A DNA stretch of 64,000 nucleotides, taken from a virus. Taxonomy: Duplodnaviria; Caudoviricetes. The translations under genes were made by a program, and so were the position numbers. Under the pieces are notes generated by a model. That model was not told where the DNA came from. It was given only the letters and a program-made list of their open reading frames with translations, and did no database searches. Each line of letters opens with the position of its first letter. Within the stretch, counting starts at the first letter, position 1. The stretch lies in IMG/VR virus record IMGVR_UViG_3300024507_000285. One strand, 5' to 3'. Positions 18,205 to 46,291 of the stretch are shown in pieces.

Positions 18205-20874
18205 TCATTCAAAATCAAACAATTTGTTAAATGTATTGTCACTTCTAGTTTGACTGATGTCCCATTCTAGTACTCCAATTAAGTTTTCTAGTTTTTCATC
18301 AATCACGGTAGTTTCCATAGTTGCATCATCGAATGGTAAATCTTTAAACCATTGTGGCAAACGTAGTTCGTCTACTGGATAAGCTACTGAGGTATATGCC
18401 ATCGGATTATCTTTGATTTTACAAACAATGACTTTTGCGCCATCAACGATGTTCATTGAGTATTTGTCGTCAAACATTCTCTTGAGAGTATTCCAATTAA
18501 GACTAGCACGAACGTGTCCGGGCATATTAGCCTTACCTTGTTTCTTTTCTTTGGCAGCATATTCTGTAATGTTGTTGGCTCGCTTAGGTGAACCCTTCTC
18601 CCAACCAGGTCGAGTCTTAAACTCTGTTCTAAAATCTGTGATGTATTCTAGAACTTCTTCTTTACTATGACCAGTTAAGACCATTTCAAGAACTTTGCTT
18701 AGGAAGTCTTGGATAACAACCGGGGTATCTGACCGCTTGAGGTCAAGCCCCATAGCTTTAATCTTGCCTGGCTTTCCTTCGACATCTGTACGTTTTCCTT
18801 CTTTGTCGTAGTAGAGGACGGCATATCGTTTCTTTGTAATGAATAGTCCTTTGGAAGCAACAATCTCGCGACCTGCTTTGATGACCTCTCCTCGATTTTT
18901 TGGGCAGTGGAAGACATCGGACATAAATTTTGCAAAGGTTCCATTTACTTCTTCTCCTATGGTATCATAAAGTTCAATTACATTTTCACGAGACCACGGT
19001 ATGGTCCCTTTCTCAATGTCCTTCTTCAGCGTAGTGTATGCTGAGAAGTAACAAGAGTCTGTGTCACCGTAGATAATAGCTTTACCTACATGGTTAAATT
19101 CGCCTGTGATAATTTCGTTTACTTTACTTGCCATATGTTTGGCAATTTGTCTACCAGTAAGAGTTGTGGATTGACCAATTCTGTTATCAAAGAATCTACA
19201 TCCAGGATTAAGAATAGCACCGTATAATGAGTTTAAGTTAATCTTTTTAACTAATTGACGTTTGTCCCAGTATTCTTCTTCAATCTTATTACCTGCTTGA
19301 ATACATTCTTTTAGTTTGGCCTGCATTTCTTTACGTTCTGAATACCATCTCTTAAGCAGTCCTGGAATAATACCTTCTTTTTCGTAGGTAAAGATAGTTC
19401 CATTTGCAGAGATCATCCACGGTTGATTACTTTCAAAAATTAAATCGTAAATTTGTGCTCCGCTAAGAGTATCACTACCGCCGCCTTCCCAGTCAATGGT
19501 AATTTCACGACCTACTTCTTTTTCCATTACAGAAGTATATTCTAAAGAACCAAAAATACCTTCCCATGCTGCCGCAAATGATTTGCCTTTAGCCATCTCT
19601 GCTTCAATGTATGCTTTAGTTCCATCTGGACGTAGTTGACCAACAATGGTCTCTGGTCCCATGTTCAAAGCCCTAATAGCAGAAGGATAAAGACTATTAA
19701 TATCAAGAGAACCAATCCACTCATGTATACCTTTCTTAGGATATGCAACATAAGCACCAGCGGCCTGTGTGTCTGCTCCAGCTTCTCGTTGTACACGGTT
19801 AGGAACAATCATGCCTCGTCTGTGTGCTTCATTAATAATTGCTTGTTCTGTAACAGCAACAGCACCCATAGTTGTTTGAATAAGAACCGTATTTTCATGT
19901 GCAATGGTGTTAGCAAGATCGATAAATTTTAATTTTTTATCTAACTTATCTAACAATGCACAATCTTGTCGGTTATACTCAATAAACTTTCGAAAATCGT
20001 TATTGTAAAGTTGATCAAGTGTTCCTTCGTAAACGGTCTTAGACTCGCCTACTTCCATTTCCCCGATCGCGTCCAGTCTGTATGTATGTCTTTCTTCGTA
20101 TGTGTACTTTCTGTATAGTTCCAACGAGTCAACGTGAACACGCCCAACCAAGTCATAGGTAACAGCAGTTTTGCCAAACTTTTCATATTCTCTCTTTTTT
20201 GGATATTGATTCCATAAACAGAATCGACGAGTATCTTCTTTGCTTAGGACTTTGATTACACGATTAACGGTATATGGAATATCAAAACCTTCCGAGTTCC
20301 AACCACTTAATACATCTGCTTCTTCAATAAGGGTTAAAAATGTATCTAACATGTCTGCTTCATTTTCAAAGAGCATAGTGTTAGGAAATTCTGCAACAGC
20401 CTTCTCAGCTTCTTCCATATTCATAGTTTTTGGAGGAATAGCCAAACAGACCATAGTTTCCATCCATTGTAGATGAACGGCAATGGCAGTAATTGGCATG
20501 AATGCATCGTCGGGTGATGCATAGCCACGCTCTGGGTCAAAGTCTACCTCAATATCAAAAAATGCTACATTTAATTTTGGAGCATCAATATTTAGATAAT
20601 GATCTTCTAAACAGCGATAGATTGGGTTAATGTCAGATTCGTAAAGTTTTTTGTTTGAATGAATTGCAAGTTCTTTGCGAAGTTCTTTTACATTCTTGCA
20701 ACTTACACGACTTAGGGGCTCGCCCTTGATTGATTGAAATTTACCTTTTGGATCAAGGTAATAAAAAAGGTGTTTGGCGGCATAATCTTTATAGTGCCTT
20801 TGACCTTTGTCATCACGTTCAACGACACGAATTGTGTCGTTTTCGCGATCATAGAATGCGTCAACGTAGCTCAT
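18205..20874 (-). CDS. Family B DNA polymerase (gp43-like; start MSYVDAF)
   Basis: FFDIEVD, GWNSEGFDIPY, YNRQD, SLDINSLYPS, KINLNSLYG, YGDTDS. Confidence 0.96.
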   Translation of the reverse strand: MSYVDAFYDRENDTIRVVERDDKGQRHYKDYAAKHLFYYLDPKGKFQSIKGEPLSRVSCKNVKELRKELAIHSNKKLYESDINPIYRCLEDHYLNIDAPKLNVAFFDIEVDFDPERGYASPDDAFMPITAIAVHLQWMETMVCLAIPPKTMNMEEAEKAVAEFPNTMLFENEADMLDTFLTLIEEADVLSGWNSEGFDIPYTVNRVIKVLSKEDTRRFCLWNQYPKKREYEKFGKTAVTYDLVGRVHVDSLELYRKYTYEERHTYRLDAIGEMEVGESKTVYEGTLDQLYNNDFRKFIEYNRQDCALLDKLDKKLKFIDLANTIAHENTVLIQTTMGAVAVTEQAIINEAHRRGMIVPNRVQREAGADTQAAGAYVAYPKKGIHEWIGSLDINSLYPSAIRALNMGPETIVGQLRPDGTKAYIEAEMAKGKSFAAAWEGIFGSLEYTSVMEKEVGREITIDWEGGGSDTLSGAQIYDLIFESNQPWMISANGTIFTYEKEGIIPGLLKRWYSERKEMQAKLKECIQAGNKIEEEYWDKRQLVKKINLNSLYGAILNPGCRFFDNRIGQSTTLTGRQIAKHMASKVNEIITGEFNHVGKAIIYGDTDSCYFSAYTTLKKDIEKGTIPWSRENVIELYDTIGEEVNGTFAKFMSDVFHCPKNRGEVIKAGREIVASKGLFITKKRYAVLYYDKEGKRTDVEGKPGKIKAMGLDLKRSDTPVVIQDFLSKVLEMVLTGHSKEEVLEYITDFRTEFKTRPGWEKGSPKRANNITEYAAKEKKQGKANMPGHVRASLNWNTLKRMFDDKYSMNIVDGAKVIVCKIKDNPMAYTSVAYPVDELRLPQWFKDLPFDDATMETTVIDEKLENLIGVLEWDISQTRSDNTFNKLFDFE

Positions 20875-20883
20875 TTTTTCTCC

Positions 20884-20903
20884 TTGCAATTTTTGGCTTG
20901 CAA
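20884..20903 (-). promoter_or_regulatory. Hairpin abutting polymerase RBS
   Basis: UUGCAA-GCCAAAAA-UUGCAA followed immediately by GGAG. Confidence 0.4.
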
Positions 20904-22422: not shown

Positions 22423-22430
22423 TATTTATC
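22423..22430 (-). promoter_or_regulatory. Late-promoter-like GATAAATA
   Basis: TAAATA core upstream of 22384. Confidence 0.5.
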
Positions 22431-22689: not shown

Positions 22690-22890
22690 TTATTTATTCT
22701 TTCCGCTTTTCATATTTGCACACCAGTGATACATTTTAGATTTCTCACCCGATGCATTTTTTGCACGTTTGCGTAGATCAGTAACTGAACCAGAACAACT
22801 AGCCCCTGAACGTTTTACTCTTCCGGGGCGGCTTTTTCCTTTAACTTTTCCGTCAGCAAAGTTTTCTATAACAAACTCTTTAGCTCTCAT
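22690..22890 (-). CDS. Small basic putative internal head protein
   Basis: N-terminus MRAKEFVIE resembles T4 capsid-targeting sequence MKTYQEFIAE. Confidence 0.6.
   Translation of the reverse strand: MRAKEFVIENFADGKVKGKSRPGRVKRSGASCSGSVTDLRKRAKNASGEKSKMYHWCANMKSGKNK
22691..22698 (-). promoter_or_regulatory. Late-promoter-like AATAAATA
   Basis: 7 nt before ATG at 22683. Confidence 0.45.
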
Positions 22891-24056
22891 CTCATTGCTA
22901 CCTGGAAAGCCTGATGCTTTTCTTTTCTAGAGTCTAAATGTTTAAGCCCGGGATTGATAGTTTTAGTAACCGCTTTAGTATCTTTAAAACTATCAATTTT
23001 TGGTGCTACTCTATTTTTCCAATACCAAACTGCTACTTTAGCAGCAATTTCTGGTTTTTCTACAAGTTCGGGTTTTTGCTCTAACGGCAATCCTAATGCT
23101 TGGCCTGCTTTCTTATAATTGTCTCGACCTGTCAGCTGTATGTATCCGCGACCTTTATATTTTGCTCCGTCTCCAACATTTTTATTACCCAATGCTTTTG
23201 CTTTTTTAGGAGCATATTTAGGATCATATTTTCGAAAGTCTAATGATCCGCCTATTTCTTTCATGTGTTTAAAATCTAAAGTTTCGTGAGCGCATTGTGC
23301 TAAAAACGCTGTAAGCTCGTGACCTACTATACCTGCTTTTTCAGCAGCCTTTTTTAAGTAGACTTCGTGGGGATTACCGGTTACGCTTTTTGCAATATCT
23401 TTTTTAGATACCTGTTGAATAACATCCGGTTTAGAATGTTTAGCATTAGCATCACTAGGAGCACCGAATGCCATTGCAGTTCCTAGTGCCCCGGCTGCTG
23501 CCCAGTCCTTCCATCCCTCGTCAACTTCTCCCTTAGCAGCAGTTTTTAATGCAGAAAAGACTTTAGATAAACTATCTTCGTCTGCTTGATACTTAATAGC
23601 AATACCGCCCGCTTGTTGCCAAGCACGAATGTTTACACCGTAATCGTCAATAAGAATATTAGGAGTACCGTCAGCATTTTTTGCATATTTGTATTTTTCG
23701 TGTTCGAATATAATTTTGTCAGCAGGAACATGAATATGTTTTTTCAGCCATTCACGTTTACCTCTAATGCTTCCTTCTTTATCAAAGTTTAATGGGCTGC
23801 TTAAAATATTATAACCACCTGCATAATCAACTACTATGCTTAAAAGTTTATTAGCAGTAGAAAATGCCGGAAGGTCACGAAATAATTCATAGGCATTAGA
23901 GTCTTTAAAAAATGTTTCCCATTGATCTTTTGTCATTTTATTGTAGTGCTCTACATCATGTAAACCTCCTACATGATTAAAAAGATCAGCAAGGACTCCG
24001 TCCATATCAACATAGACTTTCATTCCTTTGGGTAAACTAAACTCTTCTGCTCTCAT
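22887..24056 (-). CDS. Fusion: HAD 5'(3')-deoxyribonucleotidase (NT5C) + GH19 lysozyme/chitinase-like domain
   Basis: VYVDMDGVLAD, LSSP, ILIDD; then AQCAHET, YKGRGYIQLTGRDNY, AVWYW. Confidence 0.85.
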   Translation of the reverse strand: MRAEEFSLPKGMKVYVDMDGVLADLFNHVGGLHDVEHYNKMTKDQWETFFKDSNAYELFRDLPAFSTANKLLSIVVDYAGGYNILSSPLNFDKEGSIRGKREWLKKHIHVPADKIIFEHEKYKYAKNADGTPNILIDDYGVNIRAWQQAGGIAIKYQADEDSLSKVFSALKTAAKGEVDEGWKDWAAAGALGTAMAFGAPSDANAKHSKPDVIQQVSKKDIAKSVTGNPHEVYLKKAAEKAGIVGHELTAFLAQCAHETLDFKHMKEIGGSLDFRKYDPKYAPKKAKALGNKNVGDGAKYKGRGYIQLTGRDNYKKAGQALGLPLEQKPELVEKPEIAAKVAVWYWKNRVAPKIDSFKDTKAVTKTINPGLKHLDSRKEKHQAFQVAMR

Positions 24057-24652: not shown

Positions 24653-25278
24653 TATGCTGTGGCTGGTTCGCCTGTACGAGAAACTTCCCATTTCTTGCCA
24701 GTCTGTTCAGTTTTCTTACGGCACATGTCTTGCAATCTACGAAGCTGAGCCATTTCTCTGTGATCGTCTGCGTATGTTCCTTGACCAGGAAACACTTTCC
24801 ATTTTTTACCGTTGATATAGATAGCAAAGTTATTTGGTGGTTCGGTGTTGCCCTCGTCCCAATCATCTTCTCTATTTCTACGTCCAAATCCGCTTACGCT
24901 ACTATCGTAATCTCTTTGATAAGCATCACGTCCAAAACCTGATTCTTTCATAGGATCCTTTCCTGCCTGTACTTTTTTATACCATGAAATTAATTCAGCA
25001 TCACTAGCAAGTTCAAGATAGTTTATTTCCCAGTCCATCTTTTTAGCTAAGAATTGAATAATTTGTTGTCTTTTAGATCTATCTAATAAACCTTCTGTTA
25101 CTTCTGCTGGTTTTTTATGTTTTTCATATCCTTGTTTTTGTGCCTTCTTCATATCTTTATGAGCACCGGCACCTGAGATAACACTTTGTGCAGCATGAGC
25201 TACAGGGTTTCTAGGTTTGACATTATACACTTTTGCTCTTCGGCTTTTCTTATGTTCTAATATATCAGATATTTTCAT
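24652..25278 (-). CDS. Modular putative internal head protein
   Basis: MKISDILE|H, VTE|G, MKE|S, WDE|G junctions. Confidence 0.6.
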   Translation of the reverse strand: MKISDILEHKKSRRAKVYNVKPRNPVAHAAQSVISGAGAHKDMKKAQKQGYEKHKKPAEVTEGLLDRSKRQQIIQFLAKKMDWEINYLELASDAELISWYKKVQAGKDPMKESGFGRDAYQRDYDSSVSGFGRRNREDDWDEGNTEPPNNFAIYINGKKWKVFPGQGTYADDHREMAQLRRLQDMCRKKTEQTGKKWEVSRTGEPATA

Positions 25279-28200
25279 GATGATCTCTTTTGTTTAGGAC
25301 CCTTACGAGTTTTCCATTTTTTATCAGTGGAACACCAATAGCGTCCATATCCTTCTTTTACTTCTTTCTTTTTAGGATAACCGTGTTTTATTTCTAGTTG
25401 ATAACCCTGTAATCCTTGTTTATCTAAAACCTTACTAATAAATTCTTCGGCTTCTTTCGCAGAAGAAAATTTATCACCTAAATTATATTTCCTCATTTCG
25501 CCATCGATCATTACATAGGCAATAGTAATAGGTTTGACTGGTTCTTCTGCCGCCTGTGCCGGACTTGCTAATAAATTAGCAGCAGCTAAAGCTGCGCCTG
25601 CCGTTTTACTTTTCCAACCTTCTTCAACGCTATCAATCATTGGATCAATACCGCGACTTCGGATTCCACCTTTTCTTCTTACTTTAGCAAGTTCTTCTAA
25701 GGCATGACGAATTTGTTCTACATTCATTTTAAGTTCGTCAAATTGTTTGGCCATGTTTTGCCATTCGTATGGACTAGCATTGTCTACTCTGCTAGCAAGA
25801 TCTTTAATTTGTCCAGCTGCTCTCATCATTCTATATTTTAACTTCGCTGGGTTGGCTTTGTCATGGCTATGAATCATAGGATTCATTGGTTCGGAAGGAT
25901 CCATTTCAATCGGTGCTTCAGATATGCTTTCTTGAATACCCATGCCCTTGCGTGTGAAATCCATTAATTTCATAATCCAATCTTTCCCTAATTTTTGAAC
26001 ATCAAAACCTTGAGACCATAATGCAAATTGCTGTTCTGGAGTAGCATTAGGATCTTTTAAAATGTTACGTAATTTAGTAAAACTCATTCCAGTTCCGCCA
26101 GTTTCGGCAGCTCTTGGTGTAACTTCTACATCAAATTTAACATGTTCAAATCCTGGATATTTAGGATTCTTCATCCTTTTAGATAAATGCTCCATCCATT
26201 TTTTAAATCCTTCATATCGATCTTCGCCAACCATAACAATGATATGATCGTATGGAGGAGGATTACTTGATGTTACTAATTCTTTTTCAATTTTTTTCAT
26301 AACTAATCCACCTTCTTGGATCAGCTGGAACATGGCCTTCTTTTCTGGATATAATTTTTGCCATGTTTGTAATTTAACAGAAGCTGGAATAGGATCGTCT
26401 GGTCCCACGGCACTACTAATATAAACATAAGGATCAGCATTTAACTGAGACGCTTTGTTTAAAACAAAATCTACAAGTTGTTGATGTCCAATGTGCCCAA
26501 CAAAACTTCCTGCGGTAACGACAGCAGTTTTGCCCGATCTTCCATCGCCTGTTGCTCCAGGAGGTCTTGCAGATTTAATTGCTGCGTTTTTTGCAGAAAT
26601 AATATCTTTTTGTTCTTGACTAGTAATTTTAACAGGACCATTCTTTGTGTTAAGAATAATGCCTTCATAATCTTTGCCTAACTTATCCTTTCCTATAATA
26701 TCTGGATGTTGGATGATAAATTTTGCTAGATATTCTTTGACAGGCTGCAATGCTTCGGTAGCTTCTTTTTTAAGATCTCTTTTACCGCTATTAACTAACG
26801 ATCGTAATGTTTCAAGATTTTCAATGGGAGGCAATGCCCCAGTTACATCTAAACTGCCGTTAGTAGTTAACGAGTTGTCAATGAACATTGTTGTTCCAAT
26901 GCGACCAATTTTTCTCAATGCAGAGATGTATTTGTCGCTATTTGGATGTTGTTCGCCAGTTGAGCTTTTTTCAGCAAACAATGGCACAAGTGCTAGAGTA
27001 ACACCTTCGGGCAACTTGTCATAATGTATGCCAACAAATTTTAATTTACCATCTTCTGTTTCAGTAGCAAATGGTAGATATAAAACTTCACAATGAATTT
27101 TTACATCATTGAGAGCGGTATTACCTAATTTTTGATCAACGTTAGCAATGACATGCATCATCTCGTCGTATAGATCATCAAATAACTTAGCCCTAGCTTT
27201 TACATCTGGAGCGGCTTGTCTTTCTTCAGCATGTTTGCTGAATGTACCAGGTTCAAACTTAGGACCACTACGACTAGTTTCCATATATGGTTTGCCAGAT
27301 TTATCTTTACCAAACCTAGCACCAAACCCGTCTACTTTAACGGTCATTGGAACATTGTGTAATTCAAATTTTCCTGTTGCTGAATTTTTTAATTCGTCTA
27401 ATAAATTTAAAAAATCAGAATCCTTCATTTTTTCTAAATGAACAATTCCTTTTCTTTTACTTTGTACTACTTCGGCTTCGTTAATACTTTCGGATACTTT
27501 GTAACTTGCTTTATAATCTTGACGCATTTGTTCAAGATTTTTATGAGGTGTAACGTTTAAAGTTTTTAATGCATAGTTAAGTGCTGTATTTTTTTCTAAG
27601 ATATCTCTTTCAGGATCGCCTTTATATAATCCTTGTGCGCCAGGAGCATATAGCTTATCAATAAATGCATCAATGACTTTTTCCTTTTCATCCTGAGGAA
27701 CAACAAGATTCATAATTTCTAATAATCCTGTAAAACTCCATGTCTTAGGAAGAAGTTTTTGTATTTCTGTTTCTTTAACTCTTTTACCAAATATGTTTTG
27801 GAAAATTTTTCCAATATTCTTTTCGTAACCACTTGCTGGCAACGCCCTCATAACAGGAAGACCGTCAATTTCTAAAGGCTGTCCGGCATCGTCTAATACT
27901 GGTTCATATTTAGGACGAAGGCCTCCGCCTTCTTTGCTACTAACAGCAAAAGAAAACATATTGTCTGTTGTTGGAACATCTTGTTCAACTCTAGCTTTAC
28001 CTCGGCCAACCATTTTTCTTAATAAAAAATCTTGGCTTGTTAATCGTGTAAATGATTGAATTAGATACTTGTGAAATACACCTTTGATACCTTGGCTTAA
28101 ATCTTCCCAGCTACTGCTATGACTAAATCCTGCCCAATCAGTGGGTTCGTCTTTTTCATAATCTACAAATTCAAGATCAATCTGTACCTTAATAGGAGGA

Positions 28201-28676
28201 TCAGTTAACTCCCACATTGTACTATATTGTTCGTTGCCTTTACTAAATCCAATTAATTTTCCATTGCCAACAACTTTACCTGTTGAGGATTGTAAAAATT
28301 GAACAAGTTCTCCTGCATATTCTTTATTAATTTGTGTATCTATATCGCCAACTTTAGGTTTAATACGTTCAAACTCGTCGTCGGGTAAGTCAGTATTAAA
28401 AAAATGTAAACTAGATCCGCTTAAGAATTTTTTACTTGCTAAAACTTTTTTATTCCAAAGTTCGTGACCAACTGATGCAGTAAAACTAGAATTAATTCCG
28501 TTTAATAATTTGTCTAATATTGGAACAATATAAGAACGCTTGTGAACTTTAAGATCAATTTGCTGAGCTTGATGGTCACCGGTATCTCCTTGCCAGCCAG
28601 GGCTTTGAGTCGAAAGGTTTCCACCTTCTATAAGAGGTAAATTATTTCTCTTGTAGAATAATTCTAAAAGTTTCAT
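25275..28676 (-). CDS. Multidomain protein: Pol-beta-like NTase + ATP-dependent ligase-like + HIGH-motif NTase + small C-terminal modules
   Basis: LSGSS/GDIDT/VQIDLEF; TVKVDG/HCEVL/YEGII/PVKIT; GHIGH/VGEDR/MSFTKLR. Confidence 0.75.
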   Translation of the reverse strand: MKLLELFYKRNNLPLIEGGNLSTQSPGWQGDTGDHQAQQIDLKVHKRSYIVPILDKLLNGINSSFTASVGHELWNKKVLASKKFLSGSSLHFFNTDLPDDEFERIKPKVGDIDTQINKEYAGELVQFLQSSTGKVVGNGKLIGFSKGNEQYSTMWELTDPPIKVQIDLEFVDYEKDEPTDWAGFSHSSSWEDLSQGIKGVFHKYLIQSFTRLTSQDFLLRKMVGRGKARVEQDVPTTDNMFSFAVSSKEGGGLRPKYEPVLDDAGQPLEIDGLPVMRALPASGYEKNIGKIFQNIFGKRVKETEIQKLLPKTWSFTGLLEIMNLVVPQDEKEKVIDAFIDKLYAPGAQGLYKGDPERDILEKNTALNYALKTLNVTPHKNLEQMRQDYKASYKVSESINEAEVVQSKRKGIVHLEKMKDSDFLNLLDELKNSATGKFELHNVPMTVKVDGFGARFGKDKSGKPYMETSRSGPKFEPGTFSKHAEERQAAPDVKARAKLFDDLYDEMMHVIANVDQKLGNTALNDVKIHCEVLYLPFATETEDGKLKFVGIHYDKLPEGVTLALVPLFAEKSSTGEQHPNSDKYISALRKIGRIGTTMFIDNSLTTNGSLDVTGALPPIENLETLRSLVNSGKRDLKKEATEALQPVKEYLAKFIIQHPDIIGKDKLGKDYEGIILNTKNGPVKITSQEQKDIISAKNAAIKSARPPGATGDGRSGKTAVVTAGSFVGHIGHQQLVDFVLNKASQLNADPYVYISSAVGPDDPIPASVKLQTWQKLYPEKKAMFQLIQEGGLVMKKIEKELVTSSNPPPYDHIIVMVGEDRYEGFKKWMEHLSKRMKNPKYPGFEHVKFDVEVTPRAAETGGTGMSFTKLRNILKDPNATPEQQFALWSQGFDVQKLGKDWIMKLMDFTRKGMGIQESISEAPIEMDPSEPMNPMIHSHDKANPAKLKYRMMRAAGQIKDLASRVDNASPYEWQNMAKQFDELKMNVEQIRHALEELAKVRRKGGIRSRGIDPMIDSVEEGWKSKTAGAALAAANLLASPAQAAEEPVKPITIAYVMIDGEMRKYNLGDKFSSAKEAEEFISKVLDKQGLQGYQLEIKHGYPKKKEVKEGYGRYWCSTDKKWKTRKGPKQKRSS

Positions 28677-29023
28677 TAGTCTTCCTGTTTATAGTCGCCG
28701 TTCTCGATATGCTTTTCTTGTTCAGTAGCAATCATTTTTGCTAGTTCAACAATTTTGCTTTCAGGAAACTTTTCATTGGCATCTTCAATATCAAACATTT
28801 CACAATAATTTTCTAAACAACTTCTTAAAGGTTTAATGTAAATTGTGAAAGCCTTTGGATGTCCTGCATGTTTTTCGTGGCGCTTTACCGCAGGAAAGAA
28901 ATATTTTGTTAATAATTCTGTATTATTATCAATATAAAATTTTAAATCGTCAATCCAATCAATGTCAGCTTGCTCGTCATCTTTTGGAGCTCCTATAGCC
29001 GACCACATTTCTTTTAATAACAT
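28676..29023 (-). CDS. Hypothetical helical protein
   Basis: 115 aa, MLLKEM N-terminus, TAATG coupling. Confidence 0.65.
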   Translation of the reverse strand: MLLKEMWSAIGAPKDDEQADIDWIDDLKFYIDNNTELLTKYFFPAVKRHEKHAGHPKAFTIYIKPLRSCLENYCEMFDIEDANEKFPESKIVELAKMIATEQEKHIENGDYKQED

Positions 29024-29424
29024 TATTTCTGCTCCGGTGGATTATATTCTACATGCTCTGCGGCAGAATTTAAATGATCATTGGCAAGGGTAATATAACT
29101 ACTAACCCATCCTGGTAATTCATCACCTTCTCGGATACTATTAAAAAGAATCTTGGCGTTTTTTGCAATTTGAACTAATTCTGCTTTAGCCATGCTTGCT
29201 TCGTGATCTGTGGATTCTCTTATCCCTTTAGATCTAGCTTCTTTTTCTAAGTCTAATTTACGTTGCTGTACTGCTTTTGCAAGATCAGGCTCTTTCATAA
29301 CAACAGGATCAGTTTCAAGATCGTGTAGGGCCTTCTTTTTAGCTTCGTAATCACCCTTAGGGTCTGCTGAATTTAATTCTGTTTCAAATAAAGAAACTTC
29401 AAGTTTAGTGATAATATCTTTCAT
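29023..29424 (-). CDS. Putative internal head protein (start MKDIITKLE)
   Basis: LFE|T and IRE|S junctions; late promoter upstream. Confidence 0.6.
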   Translation of the reverse strand: MKDIITKLEVSLFETELNSADPKGDYEAKKKALHDLETDPVVMKEPDLAKAVQQRKLDLEKEARSKGIRESTDHEASMAKAELVQIAKNAKILFNSIREGDELPGWVSSYITLANDHLNSAAEHVEYNPPEQK

Positions 29425-29449
29425 AGTATGGTTCCGTAAGGACATACTA

Positions 29450-29457
29450 TATTTATC
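29450..29457 (-). promoter_or_regulatory. Late-promoter-like GATAAATA heading the internal-protein block
   Basis: TAAATA core in intergenic gap. Confidence 0.55.
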
Positions 29458-29841: not shown

Positions 29842-30528
29842 TTATTTAGCTAAAATTTGATAGTCGTAAACCCTACCCACAACTTCACCATTTCGCAATT
29901 GCATCATGAATAGAGTTTTTTCGTCCTCTACAAGTACGTATCGACGGTCCCAATTATAATCGGTCTTTATAAACCAACTTTTAACTGCGGTTGACATTCG
30001 TATCTTTTCCCCTTGAGTTTCAATCCAAGAAACAAAACTTTCTTTTGCTTCTTTATTTCCTTTTAACTTATGGGGAAGAAGATATACTTTGTAGTTATAT
30101 CTATTATGAGGTAATTTTTTAGCAAAAATCGAATTTGAATTTGTTTGTTCTTGTTCTTGCCCAGGAAATGGTTCAAATACATGTCTTACATAATCTTTAA
30201 ATTCTAAAGCAAGATTTTTACAAAATGTAGCATCGTTAGTGTATATGTCGATATATCTACTTTCAATTCTTTTAGTAAATTCAACATTTTTATTTTTTTC
30301 TAAAAATGTAACTAGTTCTAAGATTTGATCTTTGTTACTAAATGCTTGTTTTCTGCTGTCAAAATAATAATGTCGATCTTGTTCTTCTGGGTTTAAACAG
30401 AATTCTCTAATCTCATCATATGTTTTTGTGCGTAACAAAGATACCCCCTTGATCAAGACGGTAACTTTGTATAACCACTTATTGTAAAACTTTTGACCTG
30501 TATACTTTACATCATACGGTTTCTTCAT
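29842..30528 (-). CDS. Hypothetical protein with internal duplication
   Basis: FYNKWLYKV...RYIDIY and PHNRYNYKV...RYVLVEDE halves. Confidence 0.6.
   Translation of the reverse strand: MKKPYDVKYTGQKFYNKWLYKVTVLIKGVSLLRTKTYDEIREFCLNPEEQDRHYYFDSRKQAFSNKDQILELVTFLEKNKNVEFTKRIESRYIDIYTNDATFCKNLALEFKDYVRHVFEPFPGQEQEQTNSNSIFAKKLPHNRYNYKVYLLPHKLKGNKEAKESFVSWIETQGEKIRMSTAVKSWFIKTDYNWDRRYVLVEDEKTLFMMQLRNGEVVGRVYDYQILAK
29843..29850 (-). promoter_or_regulatory. Late-promoter-like GCTAAATA
   Basis: 4 nt before ATG at 29838. Confidence 0.45.
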
Positions 30529-32824
30529 TGGATTCCTCCAAGTTTAACCCTCGCTTCAATGCCTTTTTCTGTTCTTTGGTTAAAATAGGACTAATTTCAA
30601 ATTTTAGATCGTCATTCTCAATGCTAACATCAACTCGTCCGCCGTTTTGTAATTCTCCAAATAGGACTTTACGGCTCAAAGGAGATTTGAGTTTATTATC
30701 AATTAAACGAGCCAACGGTCTTGCGCCCATCTTTTTATCGTAACCTCTTTCAGCTAACCATTTAACTGATTCGGAATCAACAACAATCTCAATGCCTTTA
30801 TCTTTAAGTTGATCGTTAAGTTCTTTAACAAACTTTTTAACAATTTGACCAACGGTAACCATTGAAAGATTTGAAAACTTAATAATAGCATCTAAACGAT
30901 TACGGAACTCCGGAGCAAAGAATTTCTTAACTGCCTTGTCGTCCTCGTCGTCCTTGCTTAAGTCACCAAAACCTATGGTATTTTTTTCGTTGTCTGCTGC
31001 CCCTAAATTACTGGTCATAATTAAAATAGTGTTGCGACCGTCTGCTTGTTTTCCATTACTTCCAGTTACAAATCCGTTATCCATAAATTGTAACAAGATG
31101 TTTGACACATCGGGATGTGCTTTTTCAATTTCATCTAAAAGCAATACAGCATTTGGGTGTTCTTGTAGTTTGGTAATCAACTGACCTGCGTTATCTTCGT
31201 ATCCAACATAACCAGGAGGTGCACCAATTAATCGAGCAACGCTATGTTTTTCTTGATATTCACTCATATCAAAACGAATTAATTGCATACCCATTTTATC
31301 TGCTAACGCTCTTGCAGTTTCTGTTTTACCTGTACCAGTTGGACCTAAAAATAGAAAACTGCCAATGGGTTTATTAGGATTTTTCATACCTGCTTGAGAA
31401 ACAAAAATCTTATCAAGAAGATTATCAACTGCTGTATCTTGTCCATAAACAGATGCCTTCATGGAACCTTCTAGGTCAGATAAGTTCTTACTTTCTTTTT
31501 GTGCTACCATTTCTAGCGGCATATTAACCATTTTACTAAGTTCGTATGTAACCTGTTCAATATCTACCAGTTGTTCAATGCCTTCCATGCCGTCTTCGTC
31601 TTTTACTTTATAACGAGCACAAGCACAATCGATAATGTCAATTGCTTTGTCTGGTAATTTTTTATCAGACATATACTTCATAGAAAGTTTAACTGATTGC
31701 TCAATTGCACCGTCAGTAATTTTAACGTTGTGATGTTTTTCGTAGTATTTCTTAATACCTTTAATAATTTTAACTGCAAGTTCTGGCGTTGGCTCGTCAA
31801 CCGTAACACGTTGGAATCGACGCATTAGAGCACGATCTTTTTCAAAATGTTTACGATAATCTTCCCACGTAGTTGATGCTACAAGTTTAATAACACCTTT
31901 AGTAAGGATTGGCTTCAACATATTGGCCATATCATTTGAACTTTGATTAGCAGCACCGGCACCTTGCATCATGTGTGCTTCGTCAATGAATAAAATAATC
32001 TTGCCTTTCTTTTCTAAAGCACCTAACACAGCTTTTACACGTTCTTCAAAATCTCCACGATACTTACTACCAGCTAGCAATGCTGAAATATCTAAACTAT
32101 AGACCTGATGGTCTTGAATAAACTTAGGTACTTTCTTTTCAAAGATCTTGCGAGCAAGACCTTCTACAATAGCAGTCTTACCGACTCCGGGTTCACCTAC
32201 CAGTAAAACATTACATTTGTTTCTGCGAGCAAGAACAAGTTGTACCTTTTCAAGCTCGTCGTCTCTACCAATAACAGGATCAATTTTACGTTGTTTTGCT
32301 TGTAGGCTTAGGTTAGTACAAAAAGTATTAATAATTCGTTCCATCTGACTAGGGTTTGTAACTGCGGTTTCTTGGCTTGATTCTTCTTCATTATTAACCA
32401 TTTCTTGGAAATAATTAATAAATTTTTCTTTTGTTAAGCCGCCTTTGTTTAAAAAATAAAATGCAAAACTATTTTTTTCATTTAAGATGCTAACAATAAC
32501 ATCTGCAACTTCAATACGTTGACGCCCACTAAACAAAACTTGAGTAAAACATCTATTGAGCACACGTTCTACAGCATGAGTTTTTCTTGGTTTTTCGCAT
32601 TCTGGATTTTTAATATCGCTAAGATTATTTTTAATATAATGATCTAGATTTGTTTTAATAAAATTAGCATCAGCACCGAAGTCGGTGATCATCTTAAATG
32701 AATCAGCATCATCCATTATACCAAGAAGCAAATGTTCAATGGTAATATATTCGTGATCAAGGCTTTTTGCCATATTCATCGAATTTTCAAAAATTTGTTG
32801 TAGACTTTGACTTGGTTCAATCAT
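30512..32824 (-). CDS. clpA: ATP-dependent Clp protease ATP-binding subunit ClpA
   Basis: Clp N-domain (EHLLL), GEPGVGKT, FIDEAH, GPTGTGKT, LLDEIEKAH, IGF loop. Confidence 0.93.
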   Translation of the reverse strand: MIEPSQSLQQIFENSMNMAKSLDHEYITIEHLLLGIMDDADSFKMITDFGADANFIKTNLDHYIKNNLSDIKNPECEKPRKTHAVERVLNRCFTQVLFSGRQRIEVADVIVSILNEKNSFAFYFLNKGGLTKEKFINYFQEMVNNEEESSQETAVTNPSQMERIINTFCTNLSLQAKQRKIDPVIGRDDELEKVQLVLARRNKCNVLLVGEPGVGKTAIVEGLARKIFEKKVPKFIQDHQVYSLDISALLAGSKYRGDFEERVKAVLGALEKKGKIILFIDEAHMMQGAGAANQSSNDMANMLKPILTKGVIKLVASTTWEDYRKHFEKDRALMRRFQRVTVDEPTPELAVKIIKGIKKYYEKHHNVKITDGAIEQSVKLSMKYMSDKKLPDKAIDIIDCACARYKVKDEDGMEGIEQLVDIEQVTYELSKMVNMPLEMVAQKESKNLSDLEGSMKASVYGQDTAVDNLLDKIFVSQAGMKNPNKPIGSFLFLGPTGTGKTETARALADKMGMQLIRFDMSEYQEKHSVARLIGAPPGYVGYEDNAGQLITKLQEHPNAVLLLDEIEKAHPDVSNILLQFMDNGFVTGSNGKQADGRNTILIMTSNLGAADNEKNTIGFGDLSKDDEDDKAVKKFFAPEFRNRLDAIIKFSNLSMVTVGQIVKKFVKELNDQLKDKGIEIVVDSESVKWLAERGYDKKMGARPLARLIDNKLKSPLSRKVLFGELQNGGRVDVSIENDDLKFEISPILTKEQKKALKRGLNLEESNEETV

Positions 32825-33669
32825 TATTCGACTCCGTCTCTTAGTTGTTGTACTTTATGTATTTGATTAGCTGATAGGTTACGTGGAATATTGACATTAA
32901 TTTTAATTAATAACGGCCCACGTATTTTTGAACGCATATTTGGCAAACCTTCTCCTTTGCAACTTAGTATTGTATTTGATTGTGTTCCTGCTGGAACACT
33001 GACACTAATATTTTTTCCTGAGATAGTAGGAACATCTATTGTTGTTCCTAATATAGCATCCCAGACAGAAATATTATGTTCAAAGATTAAAGAATCGCCT
33101 TCTCTAATAAATGTTGGATGTTTTCGAATATAAAGATTAACAATCAAATCTCCTGCCGGGACATCTCGTAGGGTTGTGTCGCCCATACCTTCATATCGAA
33201 TTTGTTGGCCGTGATCTACGCCTGCAGGAATTGAAATATTAATTAATTTTCTTTGCCCGCCGGGTATAGTAATTTCAGCATTTAAATCTTTGCCTTTTAA
33301 AACTTCTTCTAAGGAAAGTTCTACGTTAATGTTAACAGATCTATTTCTTCGCATTGGCCTACGTCCAAATCCAAACTGCGAAAAAATATCGTCCATGCCC
33401 GGCATGCCGCCACCGAAGTGAAATTCAAATGGGCCTTGGTTGTAAAATCCGCCGCCCATTCCTGGTTGTGCATTAGGATCTCCGCCCATATCAATAATCC
33501 GTTTTTTATCAGGATCGCTTAATGCTTCGTAGGCAGTAGATATTTCTTTAAATTTATTTTGGTCACCTCCACGATCGGGATGATGCTTCATCGCAAGTTT
33601 GCGATAAGCCTTTTTAATCTCGTCGTCAGATGCACCTCTTTGTAAACCTAGTGTTGAGTAATAATCCAT
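32824..33669 (-). CDS. dnaJ: DnaJ/CbpA-like co-chaperone (no Zn finger; start MDYY)
   Basis: DYYSTLGL, HPD motif, G/F linker, C-terminal DnaJ domain. Confidence 0.88.
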   Translation of the reverse strand: MDYYSTLGLQRGASDDEIKKAYRKLAMKHHPDRGGDQNKFKEISTAYEALSDPDKKRIIDMGGDPNAQPGMGGGFYNQGPFEFHFGGGMPGMDDIFSQFGFGRRPMRRNRSVNINVELSLEEVLKGKDLNAEITIPGGQRKLINISIPAGVDHGQQIRYEGMGDTTLRDVPAGDLIVNLYIRKHPTFIREGDSLIFEHNISVWDAILGTTIDVPTISGKNISVSVPAGTQSNTILSCKGEGLPNMRSKIRGPLLIKINVNIPRNLSANQIHKVQQLRDGVE

Positions 33670-33675
33670 AATACT

Positions 33676-33704
33676 ATTATACAATAAAAAAAGGACCACG
33701 TCAA
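33676..33704 (-). promoter_or_regulatory. sigma70 promoter TTGACG-N17-TATAAT
   Basis: Hexamers at 33699-33704 and 33676-33681; ATG 6 nt downstream. Confidence 0.7.
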
Positions 33705-37719: not shown

Positions 37720-37775
37720 TATTTATCGCGAAAATTTAATCATTACATATATCTTTTTGTCGCAGATGTTAAATA
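37720..37775. promoter_or_regulatory. Divergent late-type promoters
   Basis: GATAAATA on minus (37720-37727), GTTAAATA on plus (37768-37775). Confidence 0.5.
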
Positions 37776-38587: not shown

Positions 38588-38826
38588 TCATTAGGAAGAT
38601 GGGGGGTCAATTGATCCCCTATCGTTCTTTTATAAAATTCTAGCATGTCCTCATAACCGGCCTCTGGATTGAGACCATTTTTGATACACTTTCTTTCTTT
38701 AAAGTCTAAGATGACTTTAGCGGTTTGAATGTGTCTCATTTTTAATGCATTTTTAAATTCTGTAATTTCGTCATGCCTACCATTTGGTTTTAGATAGTAG
38801 GTAACAATCATATATCGGCTGCTCAT
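38572..38826 (-). CDS. Small hypothetical protein
   Basis: 84 aa, ATGA coupling. Confidence 0.6.
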   Translation of the reverse strand: MSSRYMIVTYYLKPNGRHDEITEFKNALKMRHIQTAKVILDFKERKCIKNGLNPEAGYEDMLEFYKRTIGDQLTPHLPNDQESP

Positions 38827-39737
38827 AGTCTACCCAATTTAATTAATGTCGCTGAAAGATTAATTTCTGGATCGATAATTAATGCATGATCAACTAACCC
38901 TTGTTTAATAATCAAGATTGCTTTATCTTGATTTTCTTCTGATCCAAAGATTTCGACGTTATTATACAACCATGTATATACTTCTTCCATTTCTTCTGCA
39001 CGTAGTTTTCCACATAACATTTTACGTGCTTCATTAATTTTTCCAGCCTTAAACAAGGTAACCATATCAAACTTCCAGTCTGCTTCGCCTTGATCGCCTT
39101 TGTTAGGAGCAGCTAGTTTGCCTTCATTAACATTTTGTTGTACTAGATTAATACACTTACGAAGGTCTGGATAAGTTACCTTTACGTAATTATCCAAGGT
39201 GTCAAGATCAAAGTCCACACCTTCATCGACGAGGATAGTAGCCACACGAGCAGTAAACTCTGTAATATCAGTACGTTCGACGTGGAAGCCTTGACACCGC
39301 GAATGTATAGCAGGAATAATACGATTGGGATAGTTACAAGTAAGAATGAAGCGAGCTGTTGCATGATATTCTTCCATTACACCGCGAAGTGCTGCCTGTG
39401 CGTTAGGTGAAAGATAGTCGGCCTCATCAAGTAGTACAACCTTGAATGGACCAAATGGAATCATTTGCACAAAGTTAGTGATTTTATCTCTAACGTCGTC
39501 TACAGAGTTTGTACGCGATGCGTTAATTTCTAACACATCATAATCTTCAATACCTAATTCTCGAATAAGAATTTTAGCAAGAGTAGTTTTACCAATGCCA
39601 GCACTACCGCTTAACAGCAAATGCGGAATACTTTTATCTTTAATCCATGTTTGCACTTGTTTGCGTTGATGGTCGTCACGAAATACATAACCATCTATGT
39701 TTGCTGGACGATATTTTTCTACCCACAATTCTTTCAT
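38823..39737 (-). CDS. Clamp loader AAA+ subunit (gp44/RFC-like)
   Basis: WVEKYRP, GSAGIGKTT, LDEAD, SRC, DLRK. Confidence 0.93.
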   Translation of the reverse strand: MKELWVEKYRPANIDGYVFRDDHQRKQVQTWIKDKSIPHLLLSGSAGIGKTTLAKILIRELGIEDYDVLEINASRTNSVDDVRDKITNFVQMIPFGPFKVVLLDEADYLSPNAQAALRGVMEEYHATARFILTCNYPNRIIPAIHSRCQGFHVERTDITEFTARVATILVDEGVDFDLDTLDNYVKVTYPDLRKCINLVQQNVNEGKLAAPNKGDQGEADWKFDMVTLFKAGKINEARKMLCGKLRAEEMEEVYTWLYNNVEIFGSEENQDKAILIIKQGLVDHALIIDPEINLSATLIKLGRL

Positions 39738-43826: not shown

Positions 43827-46291
43827 GGTAATTTTTCTCCACGTTGCGGAAATGCAAGATATTTATCTTCAAAATTTCCTTCTAATACGTCAATTAGGTA
43901 GCGATCTGCTTCAAAATTTAAAGATTTGAAATCAAATCCGCTAGATTTTATTCTTGAAACTATTGCTTCTGCCTTTCCTGGCAAGCAATAGCAAATTGGC
44001 AATGCTTTTACATATCCTGGTTCAAATGCTGCATTGTCTTGTATAGTTCTCATCCATAGCGGTAAAAATTCACTATCTCTTGAACCTAATTCTTTAATGC
44101 GATTCCTCATATTTTTGATAGAGTTTGGAAATATGCGTTGGTGATCACTATCACTCACCAACGGAATATCGCTATCAATTTTAATAGCATCAAAACTAAC
44201 AAGAACTTTACTATTAATATTATCTGGAAGATTTACAGATCTACTAATGCTTTTTCCATTTTTTTCTAACGGATCTTTAATTTCAACGTAGATAATTTCG
44301 TATTCTGTATTTTGTGTATCTACATTTTTCCCTTTAGCATACTTTACATCGCCAAATAATATTTTCTTTCGATAATGGTTTCTGCTCATAGACTGAACAT
44401 ATTTTACAGCTTCAACACTTTCAATGCCTGCAAAAATTAAAACTTTTAAATCAGTTTGCACTCCGTAATTTTTATCACCGTAACGATAAATTTCATTTGT
44501 TTTAAAAATGTTACCGTCGGTAATAAAGTTAAACCAATCTAATCTCTTTTCTTTATTTTGAAATGCTTTTACATATAAATTTGCAAAAGTTTTATCGCTT
44601 TCACCTATGACTTTAACTTTAAATTGACGAATTGATTCGGCAAAATGTACAGAGTCTCTTGCTCTAATATCAAAGATGAATGTTTTATCAAATGAACTTT
44701 CACCAGAATCAAAAGTAATGTTGTAAGAAAATGATCCTGTTGAATCTTCTGCGCTAGAGTCTCGGTCGTAGAATCTTGTAAGTCCCAGGCCATTAGAATC
44801 TGCAAATTGTCTAACTTTTCCGTTTATGTCACCTGTACTAATTAATTCTAATCCAGGCGGTAATGTTCCTCCGGTGAGTTCGTAAACGGTTCTTCCGCCA
44901 TATAACAAACTCTTTGCGTATACATTTAAATTACTTGGCTTATTGACTTTTATGGTTCCTAGGTCGCTGTCAGTGATCCATTCTATACTACTTTCAATTT
45001 CTCCGATAACATCAACGCTGAATGTTTTAGCACTTATAGAAACACTTGAAATCCAAAATTCTGGATTTTCAGACGGTGCTCGGTTTCTGTTCTCAGCAAT
45101 ACAAACATATATAAAACCTTCAAATACTACAGCATCATTTACAGGATATGTAATTGTGGAACTCCATGGTCCTTGTAGATTATACGAAAGAGTTGATATT
45201 GATTCTAAAAAGTTAACAGCGGATATTGTAAATTGATATGTTTTTGTAACAGCCGCCTGATATGGAACTTTACCTGCAATTTCGCCAGTATGTTGATCAA
45301 TAGTCATCCCCGGTGGAAGCTCACTAGAGGATCCGTCCGGATTTAATGTTTCTAAGAAATAAACTAATGTTCCAGTGAGACCAACTTGTCTGTATACATC
45401 TAAGAAAATAGTAATATAGTTATTAGCTCTAAATCTTCCTAGATAAGATTCAGTAATCCAAAGAGGTGTTCTTGTACTGCTAGAATCCGCTTGAAATAAA
45501 TTAGTATCAACTTGAATAATTGAGTTGTCGGCTTGTAAAAATTCTTCTGTTACAACCCATATTCTAAATAATCTTTTTACATCGTTACGTCCGTCTGATA
45601 CCGTAACAATAAATGTATAAGCACGGCTTAATCGTTTAGGAGTTCTGCTATTTTCCGAATAATCAAAATCTACATCATCGTACAAATAACTATCAAAGCC
45701 ATTGGATTTAGATTCCATTTTATCTAACGGCATCATGTCAAAGGAAGAAGTATCGTACGCCCCAGACGGGTTTCCGTTGTATTCAACTGCAAAAATAGGA
45801 TCAGTAAATCCAAAGATTCTGCCATCTTCGGATAATGTCAACCCTGGGGGAAGTTCTCCGCCTAGGGGTGTTAGATAATATTTTAAAGTATCGCCGGCTA
45901 CGGTATCTGGATCGTAAGCATCTAATTGAAAATCAACATATGCATTGTCTAAAACAAAGTATGCATTTTCAGGACCTACATTTAAAAATCCCTCTCTAGT
46001 AATCCATCTAGGTTCGTCTGAACCGTCTACTGAAATATTGAATGTTCTATCTTCAATGTCAACGCCGTCATCTGCTCGAATTACAAATCTACTTTCGGTA
46101 AATGTTCGAACTTCTGTTGGACTTCCAGTAATATTATTTCCTTCTACTCTTAGTCCGCGAGGTAATGAACCTGCAATTAGTGTAAAAGTTACATCCCCAG
46201 CAGCCGACGTTGCCTCTAGCGGAATTTGTAACGGAACACGTTCTGTAAGAATTCCTAGGCTACCTGCTGGAGTAATCCATGTTACTGCCAT
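43823..46291 (-). CDS. Putative baseplate wedge protein with putative-Ig (He_PIG-like) repeats
   Basis: Four LP(P/R)G(L/M)...G repeats each followed by F-x-I/V-x-A/V-x-D. Confidence 0.6.
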   Translation of the reverse strand: MAVTWITPAGSLGILTERVPLQIPLEATSAAGDVTFTLIAGSLPRGLRVEGNNITGSPTEVRTFTESRFVIRADDGVDIEDRTFNISVDGSDEPRWITREGFLNVGPENAYFVLDNAYVDFQLDAYDPDTVAGDTLKYYLTPLGGELPPGLTLSEDGRIFGFTDPIFAVEYNGNPSGAYDTSSFDMMPLDKMESKSNGFDSYLYDDVDFDYSENSRTPKRLSRAYTFIVTVSDGRNDVKRLFRIWVVTEEFLQADNSIIQVDTNLFQADSSSTRTPLWITESYLGRFRANNYITIFLDVYRQVGLTGTLVYFLETLNPDGSSSELPPGMTIDQHTGEIAGKVPYQAAVTKTYQFTISAVNFLESISTLSYNLQGPWSSTITYPVNDAVVFEGFIYVCIAENRNRAPSENPEFWISSVSISAKTFSVDVIGEIESSIEWITDSDLGTIKVNKPSNLNVYAKSLLYGGRTVYELTGGTLPPGLELISTGDINGKVRQFADSNGLGLTRFYDRDSSAEDSTGSFSYNITFDSGESSFDKTFIFDIRARDSVHFAESIRQFKVKVIGESDKTFANLYVKAFQNKEKRLDWFNFITDGNIFKTNEIYRYGDKNYGVQTDLKVLIFAGIESVEAVKYVQSMSRNHYRKKILFGDVKYAKGKNVDTQNTEYEIIYVEIKDPLEKNGKSISRSVNLPDNINSKVLVSFDAIKIDSDIPLVSDSDHQRIFPNSIKNMRNRIKELGSRDSEFLPLWMRTIQDNAAFEPGYVKALPICYCLPGKAEAIVSRIKSSGFDFKSLNFEADRYLIDVLEGNFEDKYLAFPQRGEKLP

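Follow-up and report, generated by a model that had tools for sequence, protein, structure and literature searches.

In bacteriophage T4, head proteins are cut by the protease gp21 after the Glu of L/I-X-E sequences, and the first ten residues of the internal protein IPIII, a capsid-targeting sequence, are enough for foreign proteins to be taken up by the head and subsequently injected from it (PMC9026906, PMC3012670). The proteases of giant phages likewise cut after Glu (PMC5694885). Among RNA repair systems, RlaP enzymes of the Pol-beta type put one or two nucleotides on damaged RNA 3' ends, which allows ligation to regenerate a working tRNA (PMC12776372; PMC7824862). Pairs of RlaP and RNA ligase are common in jumbo phages, and a survey of these phages treats RlaP, RNA ligases, HIGH-type NMN adenylyltransferases (NMNATs) and injected polyvalent proteins separately (PMC7824862). 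We here describe an open reading frame (ORF) that appears to bring such elements together. It lies on the minus strand of a viral DNA stretch of 64,000 nucleotides (IMG/VR record IMGVR_UViG_3300024507_000285; Duplodnaviria, Caudoviricetes), referred to below as the window, at positions 25275-28676, and is open for 1133 amino acids as a single ORF across the whole of the interval to which a preliminary description of this DNA had drawn attention. The predicted polyprotein of 125 kDa joins a Pol-beta-type nucleotidyltransferase (domain 1), an RNA-ligase-like domain (domain 2) and a nucleotidyltransferase with a HIGH signature (domain 3) to a putative N-terminal leader and three small C-terminal modules. 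T4-type packaged proteins and repair systems that pair a Pol-beta-type transferase and a ligase are known components; for the combined architecture we found no published description.

The T4 proteins IPI, IPII, IPIII and Alt share with this polyprotein a short N-terminal leader ending in L/I-x-E and cleavage after Glu (the cleavage being predicted here), and the T4 internal proteins also resemble it in carrying cargo that is unrelated to head structure and differs between related phages (PMC9026906, PMC3012670). The internal proteins are, however, small single proteins and Alt is a single ADP-ribosyltransferase, whereas the present product is a 125-kDa polyprotein of three enzymes and small modules with predicted cut sites in its interior. 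Modules of RlaP (PF10127) and RNA ligase are similar in that a Pol-beta-fold transferase is genetically coupled to an enzyme of the RNA-ligase fold. Neither the query protein nor any of 107 members of the domain 1 family matched PF10127, and domain 1 is therefore not an RlaP at the sequence level. It differs from RlaP modules further in that domain 1 has a large beta insert and a helical subdomain, that the ligase falls outside the Pfam ligase families, and that a HIGH transferase is added whereas no polynucleotide kinase/phosphatase is fused. African swine fever virus (ASFV) PolX and ligase, together with the ligase-PolX fusions of giant viruses, likewise pair or fuse a small Pol X-like palm/thumb unit with a KxDG ligase. 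Their ligases are DNA ligases with oligonucleotide/oligosaccharide-binding (OB) domains, in contrast to domain 2, which has no OB domain, and the relationship is undetectable in sequence, with no more than moderate fold Z scores of 6.6-7.5. Polyvalent proteins (Iyer et al. 2017, as cited in PMC7824862) are comparable in being large and composed of several enzymes; they are presumed to accompany phage or conjugative DNA and to act in early host conflict. As portrayed in that citing survey, they are single long proteins of other phage groups, in contrast to the T4-type targeting and predicted proteolytic dissection described here, and we found no description of a set of Pol-beta, ligase and HIGH domains.

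A database search showed that more than 800 metagenomic phage relatives have the first approximately 920 residues in common with the query protein at 47-73% identity and differ in length and content beyond that point. An exhaustive search yielded 1190 relatives, including stand-alone forms of each domain and two-domain forms, and parts of the family occur in cultured phages of Campylobacter, Vibrio, Stenotrophomonas and Xanthomonas; given this abundance and the presence of parts in cultured phages, the family should be amenable to bench tests. All of the motifs that the preliminary description had quoted were found in the order and with the spacing it gave: FLSGSS at residue 84, GDIDT at 110 and VQIDL at 164 in domain 1; TVKVDG at 445, HCEVL at 528, YEGII at 670 and PVK at 681 in domain 2; and GHIGH at 727, VGEDR at 816 and MSFTKLR at 864 in domain 3. 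Its statement that a single polypeptide contains three unrelated nucleotidyl-transfer domains with intact catalytic signatures therefore held, with structure prediction and fold search as the basis for domains 1 and 2 and sequence evidence alone for domain 3. We regard the first two folds, Pol-beta nucleotidyltransferase and RNA-ligase-like, as nearly certain, and hold the fold assignment of domain 3 with somewhat lower confidence. Alignments made for each domain with 79-107 diverse relatives (27-79% identity to the query) showed that the key motif residues are invariant or nearly so, a conservation far above chance, which argues that all three active sites are catalytically alive. A purely structural protein composed of dead enzyme folds was ruled out on the grounds that every catalytic signature is invariant across the family.

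Standard profile searches revealed little of this. The only Pfam match of the whole protein was a sub-threshold one to FAD_syn, a phmmer search of the protein against the PDB returned nothing meaningful, and Pfam scans of family members gave no consistent family for domains 1 and 2. The analysis thus defines two large phage enzyme families, one Pol-beta-like and one RNA-ligase-like, that are without a Pfam model.

Domain 1 (residues 18-400; 27477..28625, minus strand) is predicted to be a nucleotidyltransferase of the Pol-beta superfamily that also has a beta-rich insert and, at its C-terminal end, a helical subdomain. It has the signature of the superfamily, hG[GS] followed by [DE]x[DE] and a third carboxylate on the next strand, and residues G87, S88, D111, D113 and D167 are invariant in the alignment of 107 sequences. 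The AlphaFold2 model of residues 1-400 had a predicted local distance difference test (pLDDT) score of 93.7, with residues 1-13 below 50. The best Foldseek matches of the domain 1 model were Pol beta, lambda and mu (E 3e-3, probability 1.0), and nearly all of the top 50 matches in an exhaustive VIA search were Pol-beta-superfamily enzymes. These included TUT7 (Z 7.7), Pol beta (Z 7.5 over 187 residues), TdT, Pol mu and Pol lambda (Z about 7) and ASFV PolX (Z 6.6, spanning 159 of its 176 residues), with PAP, OAS/cGAS/CD-NTases, ANT and CCA enzymes further down. The longest structural alignments were those with the family X polymerases Pol beta, lambda, mu and TdT (168-190 residues, Z 7.0-7.5), and neighbours in the ESM Atlas included giant-virus proteins that fuse ligase and PolX domains. 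At the sequence level, domain 1 matched phrog_19290 (2e-22) and no Pfam family, its family profile found nothing in the PDB, and the PolX palm, thumb and finger models PF14792, PF14791 and PF10391 gave no match at E values up to 0.1 in 107 members. Membership of the Pol-beta superfamily is thus secure on the basis of the model, and the modest scores do not fix the subfamily; the predicted structure of domain 1 is no less similar to family X polymerases than to enzymes that add nucleotides to RNA ends.

The structure model of domain 2 (residues 401-712; 26541..27476, minus strand; pLDDT 94.4) resembles the adenylyltransferase domain of ATP-dependent RNA ligases and lacks an OB domain. Ligase motifs I (KxDG), III, IV (EG) and V (K) are all kept, with D449, G450, E530, E671, G672 and K683 invariant and K447 conserved at 90% or more. 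In a Foldseek search of the PDB, all of the top 50 matches were ATP-dependent RNA or DNA ligases (best E 4e-5), led by T. brucei REL1, archaeal Rnl3, T4 Rnl1 and a Naegleria RNA ligase. VIA-align gave Z 11.3 (191 residues, 3.4 Å) for the adenylyltransferase domain of Naegleria RNA ligase (NgrRnl), Z 9.8 for REL1 and Z 9.3 for T4 Rnl2. An identity as mRNA capping enzyme was ruled out, none being present among the top matches. Sequence profiles were again nearly silent: among 79 members, only one touched any of the Pfam ligase models PF09414, PF09511 and PF01068 (PF09414, E 0.082), and the family profile found only chance-level matches in the PDB.

Outside its own family, the closest structural neighbour of domain 2 in the ESM Atlas was DUF6267 (PF19782; TM 0.69), followed by the RNA_lig_T4_1 and RNA_ligase families (TM 0.52). 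DUF6267 proteins share a K-x-DG ... G-K/R-D-K motif, and one Atlas cluster is fused to CTP_transf_like, mirroring the pairing of the ligase-like and HIGH domains described here. The PF19782 model was touched by a single member out of 79 (E 2.5e-4), and hhalign comparison with a single DUF6267 sequence aligned motif I only for domain 2, with a probability below 1%, and was too weak to be of use for either domain 1 or domain 2. The structural comparison suggests that DUF6267, a large phage family without known function, has a KxDG ligase-like fold. A literature search retrieved no paper describing either DUF6267 or the three-domain combination. One DUF6267 protein among the relatives, P0216 (802 amino acids), contains S-I-K-W-D-G ... 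G-R-D-K-E-G and the same c1 and c2 modules as the query protein (see below).

Domain 3 (residues 713-920; 25917..26540, minus strand) is, as far as its motifs indicate, a HIGH/SxTxxR nucleotidyltransferase. Both the HxGH motif (H728-I-G730-H731) and the C-terminal (I)SxTxxR motif (S865-F-T867-K-L-R870, of the form SxTxLR) are present; G730, H731, G817, D819 and R870 are invariant, and H728, S865 and T867 are conserved at 90% or more. The domain matched phrog_3041, annotated as cytidyltransferase (3e-15), and ESM Atlas features placed it with viral CTP_transf_like clusters (0.93). Its family profile hit the FAD synthetase RibF in the PDB (4e-4) over the HxGH segment only, about 35 residues. Matches to FAD_syn were weak and consistent, occurring in 77 of 80 members at 14.9-16.4 bits, below the curated cut-off of 27, and RibF models were touched by 55 of the 80. 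PF01467 matched only two members, and NMNAT models were barely touched (TIGR00482 by one member, E 0.015, and PRK00071 by one, E 0.078). The designation NMNAT is not warranted for domain 3, whose only neighbours in sequence are FMN adenylyltransferases, over their HxGH segment, and generic families of the cytidylyltransferase-like kind. The NatV-type NMNATs of phage KVP40 are similar in having HxGH and SxTxxR signatures and in belonging to large phages; they differ in that no Nampt partner, Nudix domain or kinase fusion accompanies domain 3, whose nearest neighbours are FMN adenylyltransferases.

The N-terminal leader, residues 1-17 (MKLLELFYKRNNLPLIE; 28626..28676, minus strand), is a putative capsid-targeting propeptide ending in L-I-E|G, and it resembles the T4 capsid-targeting sequence in its length and in its L/I-x-E end (LIE17|G18 in the query protein). 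Its residues 1-13, with the low pLDDT noted above, are modelled as disordered. Among 181 relatives with residues preceding the nearly invariant sequence GGN, Glu occupied position P1 in 180 and L, I or V position P3 in 180, with P2 being filled by 15 different residues. The leaders are 9-20 residues long and comprise 128 distinct sequences with the consensus M-x-L-R/F-E/D-F/L/I-F. Twenty relatives begin exactly with M-GGN, that is, at the predicted mature end. For the phages Mendera and pv27, an in-frame stop codon is located 4-6 codons upstream of the M-GGN start and a ribosome-binding site precedes the ATG, and these starts are therefore genuine. Given that leaderless homologues begin where leaders end, the leader appears to be an optional add-on.

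Similar sites were found farther along the polyprotein. At junction 1, V-S-E|S-I-N-E|A (E396 and E400; 27468..27494, minus strand), a predicted protease site separates domains 1 and 2. The linker at this position varies in both length and sequence, yet [LIV]xE[AGSD] is present in 148 of 162 relatives, and among the exceptions listed nearly all have a close variant such as M-V-E, L-D-E or V-T-E. Stand-alone domain 1 proteins stop at this junction and stand-alone domain 2 proteins start there. Junction 2, I-Q-E|S-I-S-E|A (E916 and E920; 25914..25937, minus strand), is a predicted protease site after domain 3; among the relatives listed, nearly all have P-V-A-E, L-K-E or V-T-E at this point, within a Pro/Gln-rich linker of variable length. 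The linker between domains 2 and 3 (residues 700-722), in contrast, showed no conserved Glu site among 45 relatives and is devoid of Glu in the query protein, and proteins consisting of domains 2 and 3 alone are common among the relatives. The preliminary description had placed Glu junctions between all of the domains; such junctions were found between leader and domain 1, between domains 1 and 2, and between domain 3 and the C-terminal region, and not between domains 2 and 3.

The C-terminal region comprises three modules whose limits, set independently by homology, coincide with the sequences V-E-E|G and V-K-E|G. Module c1 (residues 921-1019; 25620..25916, minus strand) is a helical add-on ending in V-E-E|G that also forms the C-terminal end of phage proteins which are otherwise unlike one another, CTP_transf_like and DUF6267 proteins among them. 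Module c2 (residues 1020-1108; 25353..25619, minus strand) consists of GWKSK, an Ala-rich hydrophobic stretch, AQA and a small beta domain with a V-K-E|G end. It also occurs on CTP_transf_like, DUF6267 and Pterin_4a proteins, starts directly after V/L/A-x-E in 14 proteins, and follows the general pattern GW(K/R)SK, Ala-rich hydrophobic stretch and (S/N)PA(Q/H)A-type end, so that its N-terminal part resembles a Sec signal peptide or a signal-arrest-release (SAR) anchor, one that cleavage would be needed to expose. A c2 paralogue is present elsewhere in the window, at 23313-23525, between the NT5C and GH19 domains of ORF 22887-24056 (E 3e-4). Module c3, a short basic tail (residues 1109-1133 plus stop codon, GYGRYWCSTDKKWKTRKGPKQKRSS; 25275..25352, minus strand), was matched separately from c2 at the C-termini of the relatives P0002, P0182, P0191, P0202, P0217 and P0228. 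Other cargo seen in the C-terminal extensions of relatives comprises peptidoglycan-related VanY and LysM domains (P0016), PF19846 (P0061 and P0077), and, in P0217, a pterin-4a-carbinolamine dehydratase flanked by c2/c3 modules. The C-terminal tail thus gives the impression of a rack on which cargo can be exchanged.

A homologue with a leader has been detected in phage particles. Gene 1-56 of Campylobacter phage vB_CcoM-IBB_35 (IBB_35) encodes a homologue of domain 1 with the leader MKLSELMFILE|GGN, and its product was identified in purified virions by electrospray ionization tandem mass spectrometry with 17% coverage (PMC3322345 supplement); the paper on CP21 does not list virion data gene by gene from which the homologue could be judged. 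The cultured relatives Mendera and X1, in which the three activities are encoded separately, also encode a Peptidase_S77 (gp21) protease. That the polyprotein is injected, as had been proposed for it, is thus supported indirectly, by the T4-like leader, the conserved L/I/V-x-E linker sites, the M-GGN starts and the virion data for IBB_35. The match to the gp21 motif, the M-GGN starts and the presence of a leader-bearing homologue in Campylobacter virions together make packaging and injection likely, and head packaging with proteolytic processing is the best-supported reading of the locus.

On the whole, we consider it somewhat probable that the product of the ORF is a polyprotein targeted to the capsid of a large T4-type phage and serving to deliver an enzyme kit for healing and sealing nucleic-acid ends. 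The conserved signals and the one published virion proteome suggest that the 17-residue leader would load the polyprotein into the prohead, where a gp21-type prohead protease would cut after E17, E396/E400, E916/E920, E1019 and E1108. The predicted products are the Pol-beta-type nucleotidyltransferase (residues 18-400), an uncut ligase-like plus HIGH enzyme (residues 401-920) and the three small add-on modules, which would pass out of the head along with the DNA and be at work from the first moments of infection. From the folds and from known analogues, the chemistry may be the healing and sealing of broken nucleic-acid ends: domain 1 would supply the nucleotide or nucleotides missing from a 3'-OH end, in the manner of RlaP or a Pol X enzyme, sealing by way of a Lys447-AMP intermediate would fall to domain 2, and the HIGH domain joined to domain 2 would provide it with a newly made or regenerated adenylylated small-molecule cofactor, such as NAD+ from NMN. 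End repair as the function is a tentative assignment, to which we give somewhat less than an even chance. The specific targets named in the preliminary description (PrrC/RloC, Thoeris and SIR2) and protein AMPylation are neither favoured nor opposed by these results. If the reading as a whole is correct, T4-type capsid targeting would serve far beyond small anti-restriction proteins and would deliver whole multi-enzyme kits, which would be active before any phage gene is expressed, in the period in which nucleases, anticodon nucleases or NADases of the host attack.

The arrangement of the genes in relatives bears on the relation among the three activities. In Mendera and X1, the gene order is domain 1, an unrelated gene of approximately 320 residues, domain 2 and a PF01467 cytidylyltransferase, located between primase and baseplate-hub genes. 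The presence of domain 1, domain 2 and the cytidylyltransferase as separate neighbouring genes in both phages indicates that they form a conserved functional set that has become fused in the present lineage. The additional gene (Mendera gene 049, L001:4749-5693; X1 WEM34318, L002:4879-5883) has no Pfam match and no counterpart in the fused protein, and a K-K-V-D-G string occurs in its X1 copy. The obligatory joining of the ligase-like domain to the HIGH domain has a parallel in DUF6267 fused to CTP_transf_like and suggests that the two carry out coupled chemistry, possibly the supply of a nucleotide donor; the pairing points to a recurring uncharacterised partnership. A more far-reaching proposal is that widespread large T4-type phages carry a head-loaded, self-contained kit for end repair and cofactor supply that is cut by the protease and injected, that its ligase-like and HIGH pair performs an undescribed coupled chemistry (for example, a ligase making or regenerating its own nucleotide donor), and that the freed C-terminal modules go to the envelope by means of their signal-peptide-like ends. 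We consider this unlikely.

Several observations weigh against the proposal of a packaged end-repair kit. The polyprotein contains 18 [LIVM]-x-E triplets, and the motif alone is therefore unspecific, with only its conservation in linkers being informative. No head genes and no protease gene were found within the 64-kb window. PF03420 was also unmatched in five related IMG/VR fragments, which are 6-39% complete; all four of those checked lack a full gp23, so that this result is uninformative. In the cultured phages Mendera, X1 and pv27, domain 1 has no leader, and the enzymes presumably work there without leader-mediated packaging, which is therefore not intrinsic to them. The protein contains no end-healing kinase or phosphatase domain, so that it could not by itself seal RNA that anticodon nucleases have cut. 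Finally, the fold scores of domain 1 are modest (Z of at most 7.7) and do not separate its RNA-acting from its DNA-acting relatives.

The ORF might instead encode a cytoplasmic multifunctional enzyme that is neither packaged nor cut, a fusion of conserved operon products in which the Glu-containing linkers and the N-terminal peptide serve folding or regulation. The separate, leaderless genes for the three activities in Mendera and X1 would fit such an enzyme, as would the presence of replication genes (DNA polymerase and clamp loader) in the same minus-strand block. It would not be expected, however, that the P3/P1 pattern is near-universal with P2 free across 128 distinct leaders, that homologues begin exactly at the predicted cut, that a leader-bearing homologue is seen in virions by mass spectrometry, or that c1-c3 are common to unrelated enzymes and in every case follow V/L-x-E. 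We therefore regard an unpackaged enzyme as improbable.

Other alternatives concern the substrate. A DNA repair kit, in which domain 1 would act as a minimal gap-filling enzyme or terminal transferase of family X and domain 2 would seal DNA nicks or ends, could protect the incoming genome or mend it after nicks, restriction cuts or end damage; it would be akin to the ASFV PolX and ligase, to the giant-virus PolX-ligase fusions or to end-joining pairs. Co-delivery with DNA would suit a DNA substrate, and both the long alignments of domain 1 with Pol beta, lambda, mu and TdT, together with nearly the whole of ASFV PolX, and its giant-virus ligase-PolX neighbours in the Atlas point in this direction. 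On the other hand, domain 2 lacks an OB domain and its comparisons rank RNA ligases (Rnl5, REL1, Rnl2, Rnl1 and Rnl3) above DNA ligases, the PolX models of Pfam were undetected in the 107 members of the domain 1 family, and RNA enzymes of the TUTase/PAP type score as high for domain 1 as Pol X does; a DNA repair kit thus seems rather unlikely. Still less probable is a small-molecule or signalling kit, in which NAD+ or FAD would be restored against NADase defences or domain 1 would make a second messenger, with the ligase-like domain adenylylating a protein or a metabolite. The neighbours of domain 3 are indeed FMN adenylyltransferases and cytidylyltransferase-like small-molecule enzymes, the fold matches of domain 1 include cGAS/CD-NTase and OAS enzymes (Z 6-7), and HIGH enzymes of the NMNAT type are known from NAD+ salvage in jumbo phages (PMC7824862). 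The top structural matches of domain 2 are nevertheless polynucleotide ligases without exception, and ligase motifs I, III, IV and V are retained in it; the long CD-NTase alignments of domain 1 have a root mean square deviation of about 8-9 Å; and no Nampt or NAPRTase partner was seen among the flanking genes scanned.

The ORF is the last of a three-gene unit on the minus strand (29023-29445, 28676-29023 and 25275-28676). The sequence GATAAATA, a T4-late-promoter-like box, is located upstream of this unit at 29450..29457 on the minus strand, and five further copies with the same placement were found on that strand at 4214-4221, 22423-22430, 37720-37727, 43860-43867 and 46896-46903. The total of six copies in the window equals that expected by chance; all six are on the coding minus strand and 5-39 nucleotides upstream of an ORF start. 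The canonical T4 late promoter TATAAATA is under-represented, with one occurrence compared with 8.6 expected, and was set aside as the late promoter of the window, the positioned motif being GATAAATA. To judge by its placement, GATAAATA is probably the version of the T4 late promoter used by this phage, and its position ahead of the three-gene unit is in keeping with the proposed packaging.

The long minus-strand block that contains the ORF belongs to a window with T4-type replication and tail genes, among them those for a family B DNA polymerase (18205-20889), a clamp loader (38823-39737) and baseplate-wedge and tail-fibre proteins (53633-63358). No near-identical DNA was found in cultured phages, none of which is close at the DNA level. 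Related IMG/VR contigs are 61-200 kb in length and are rated only 17-39% complete, and the source, a large uncultured phage of the T4 type, therefore appears to belong to a jumbo-phage lineage. An IMG/VR contig that encodes a 47%-identical relative also contains an ORF for 139 amino acids (L007:781-1200) about 9 kb from the polyprotein. This ORF matches only positions 6-45 of the Gp23 model, the region of the N-terminal propeptide of the T4 major capsid protein (E 6.5e-9), and its product may be another small protein with a head-core-binding leader.

Directly upstream of the block of putative packaged proteins, at 30512-33699, are genes for a ClpA/B-like double AAA+ ATPase of 770 amino acids and a DnaJ-like protein of 291 amino acids with a J domain and DnaJ_C. 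A role for phage ClpA in aiding the movement of proteins into heads has been put forward as speculation in a published survey. Also in the window, ORF 22887-24056 encodes an NT5C/HAD nucleotidase-like domain fused to a GH19 muramidase-like domain. The HAD domain shows a faint match to a polynucleotide-kinase PHROG (E 9e-4), and it could conceivably be a source of the 3'-phosphatase step that is missing from the triple transferase.

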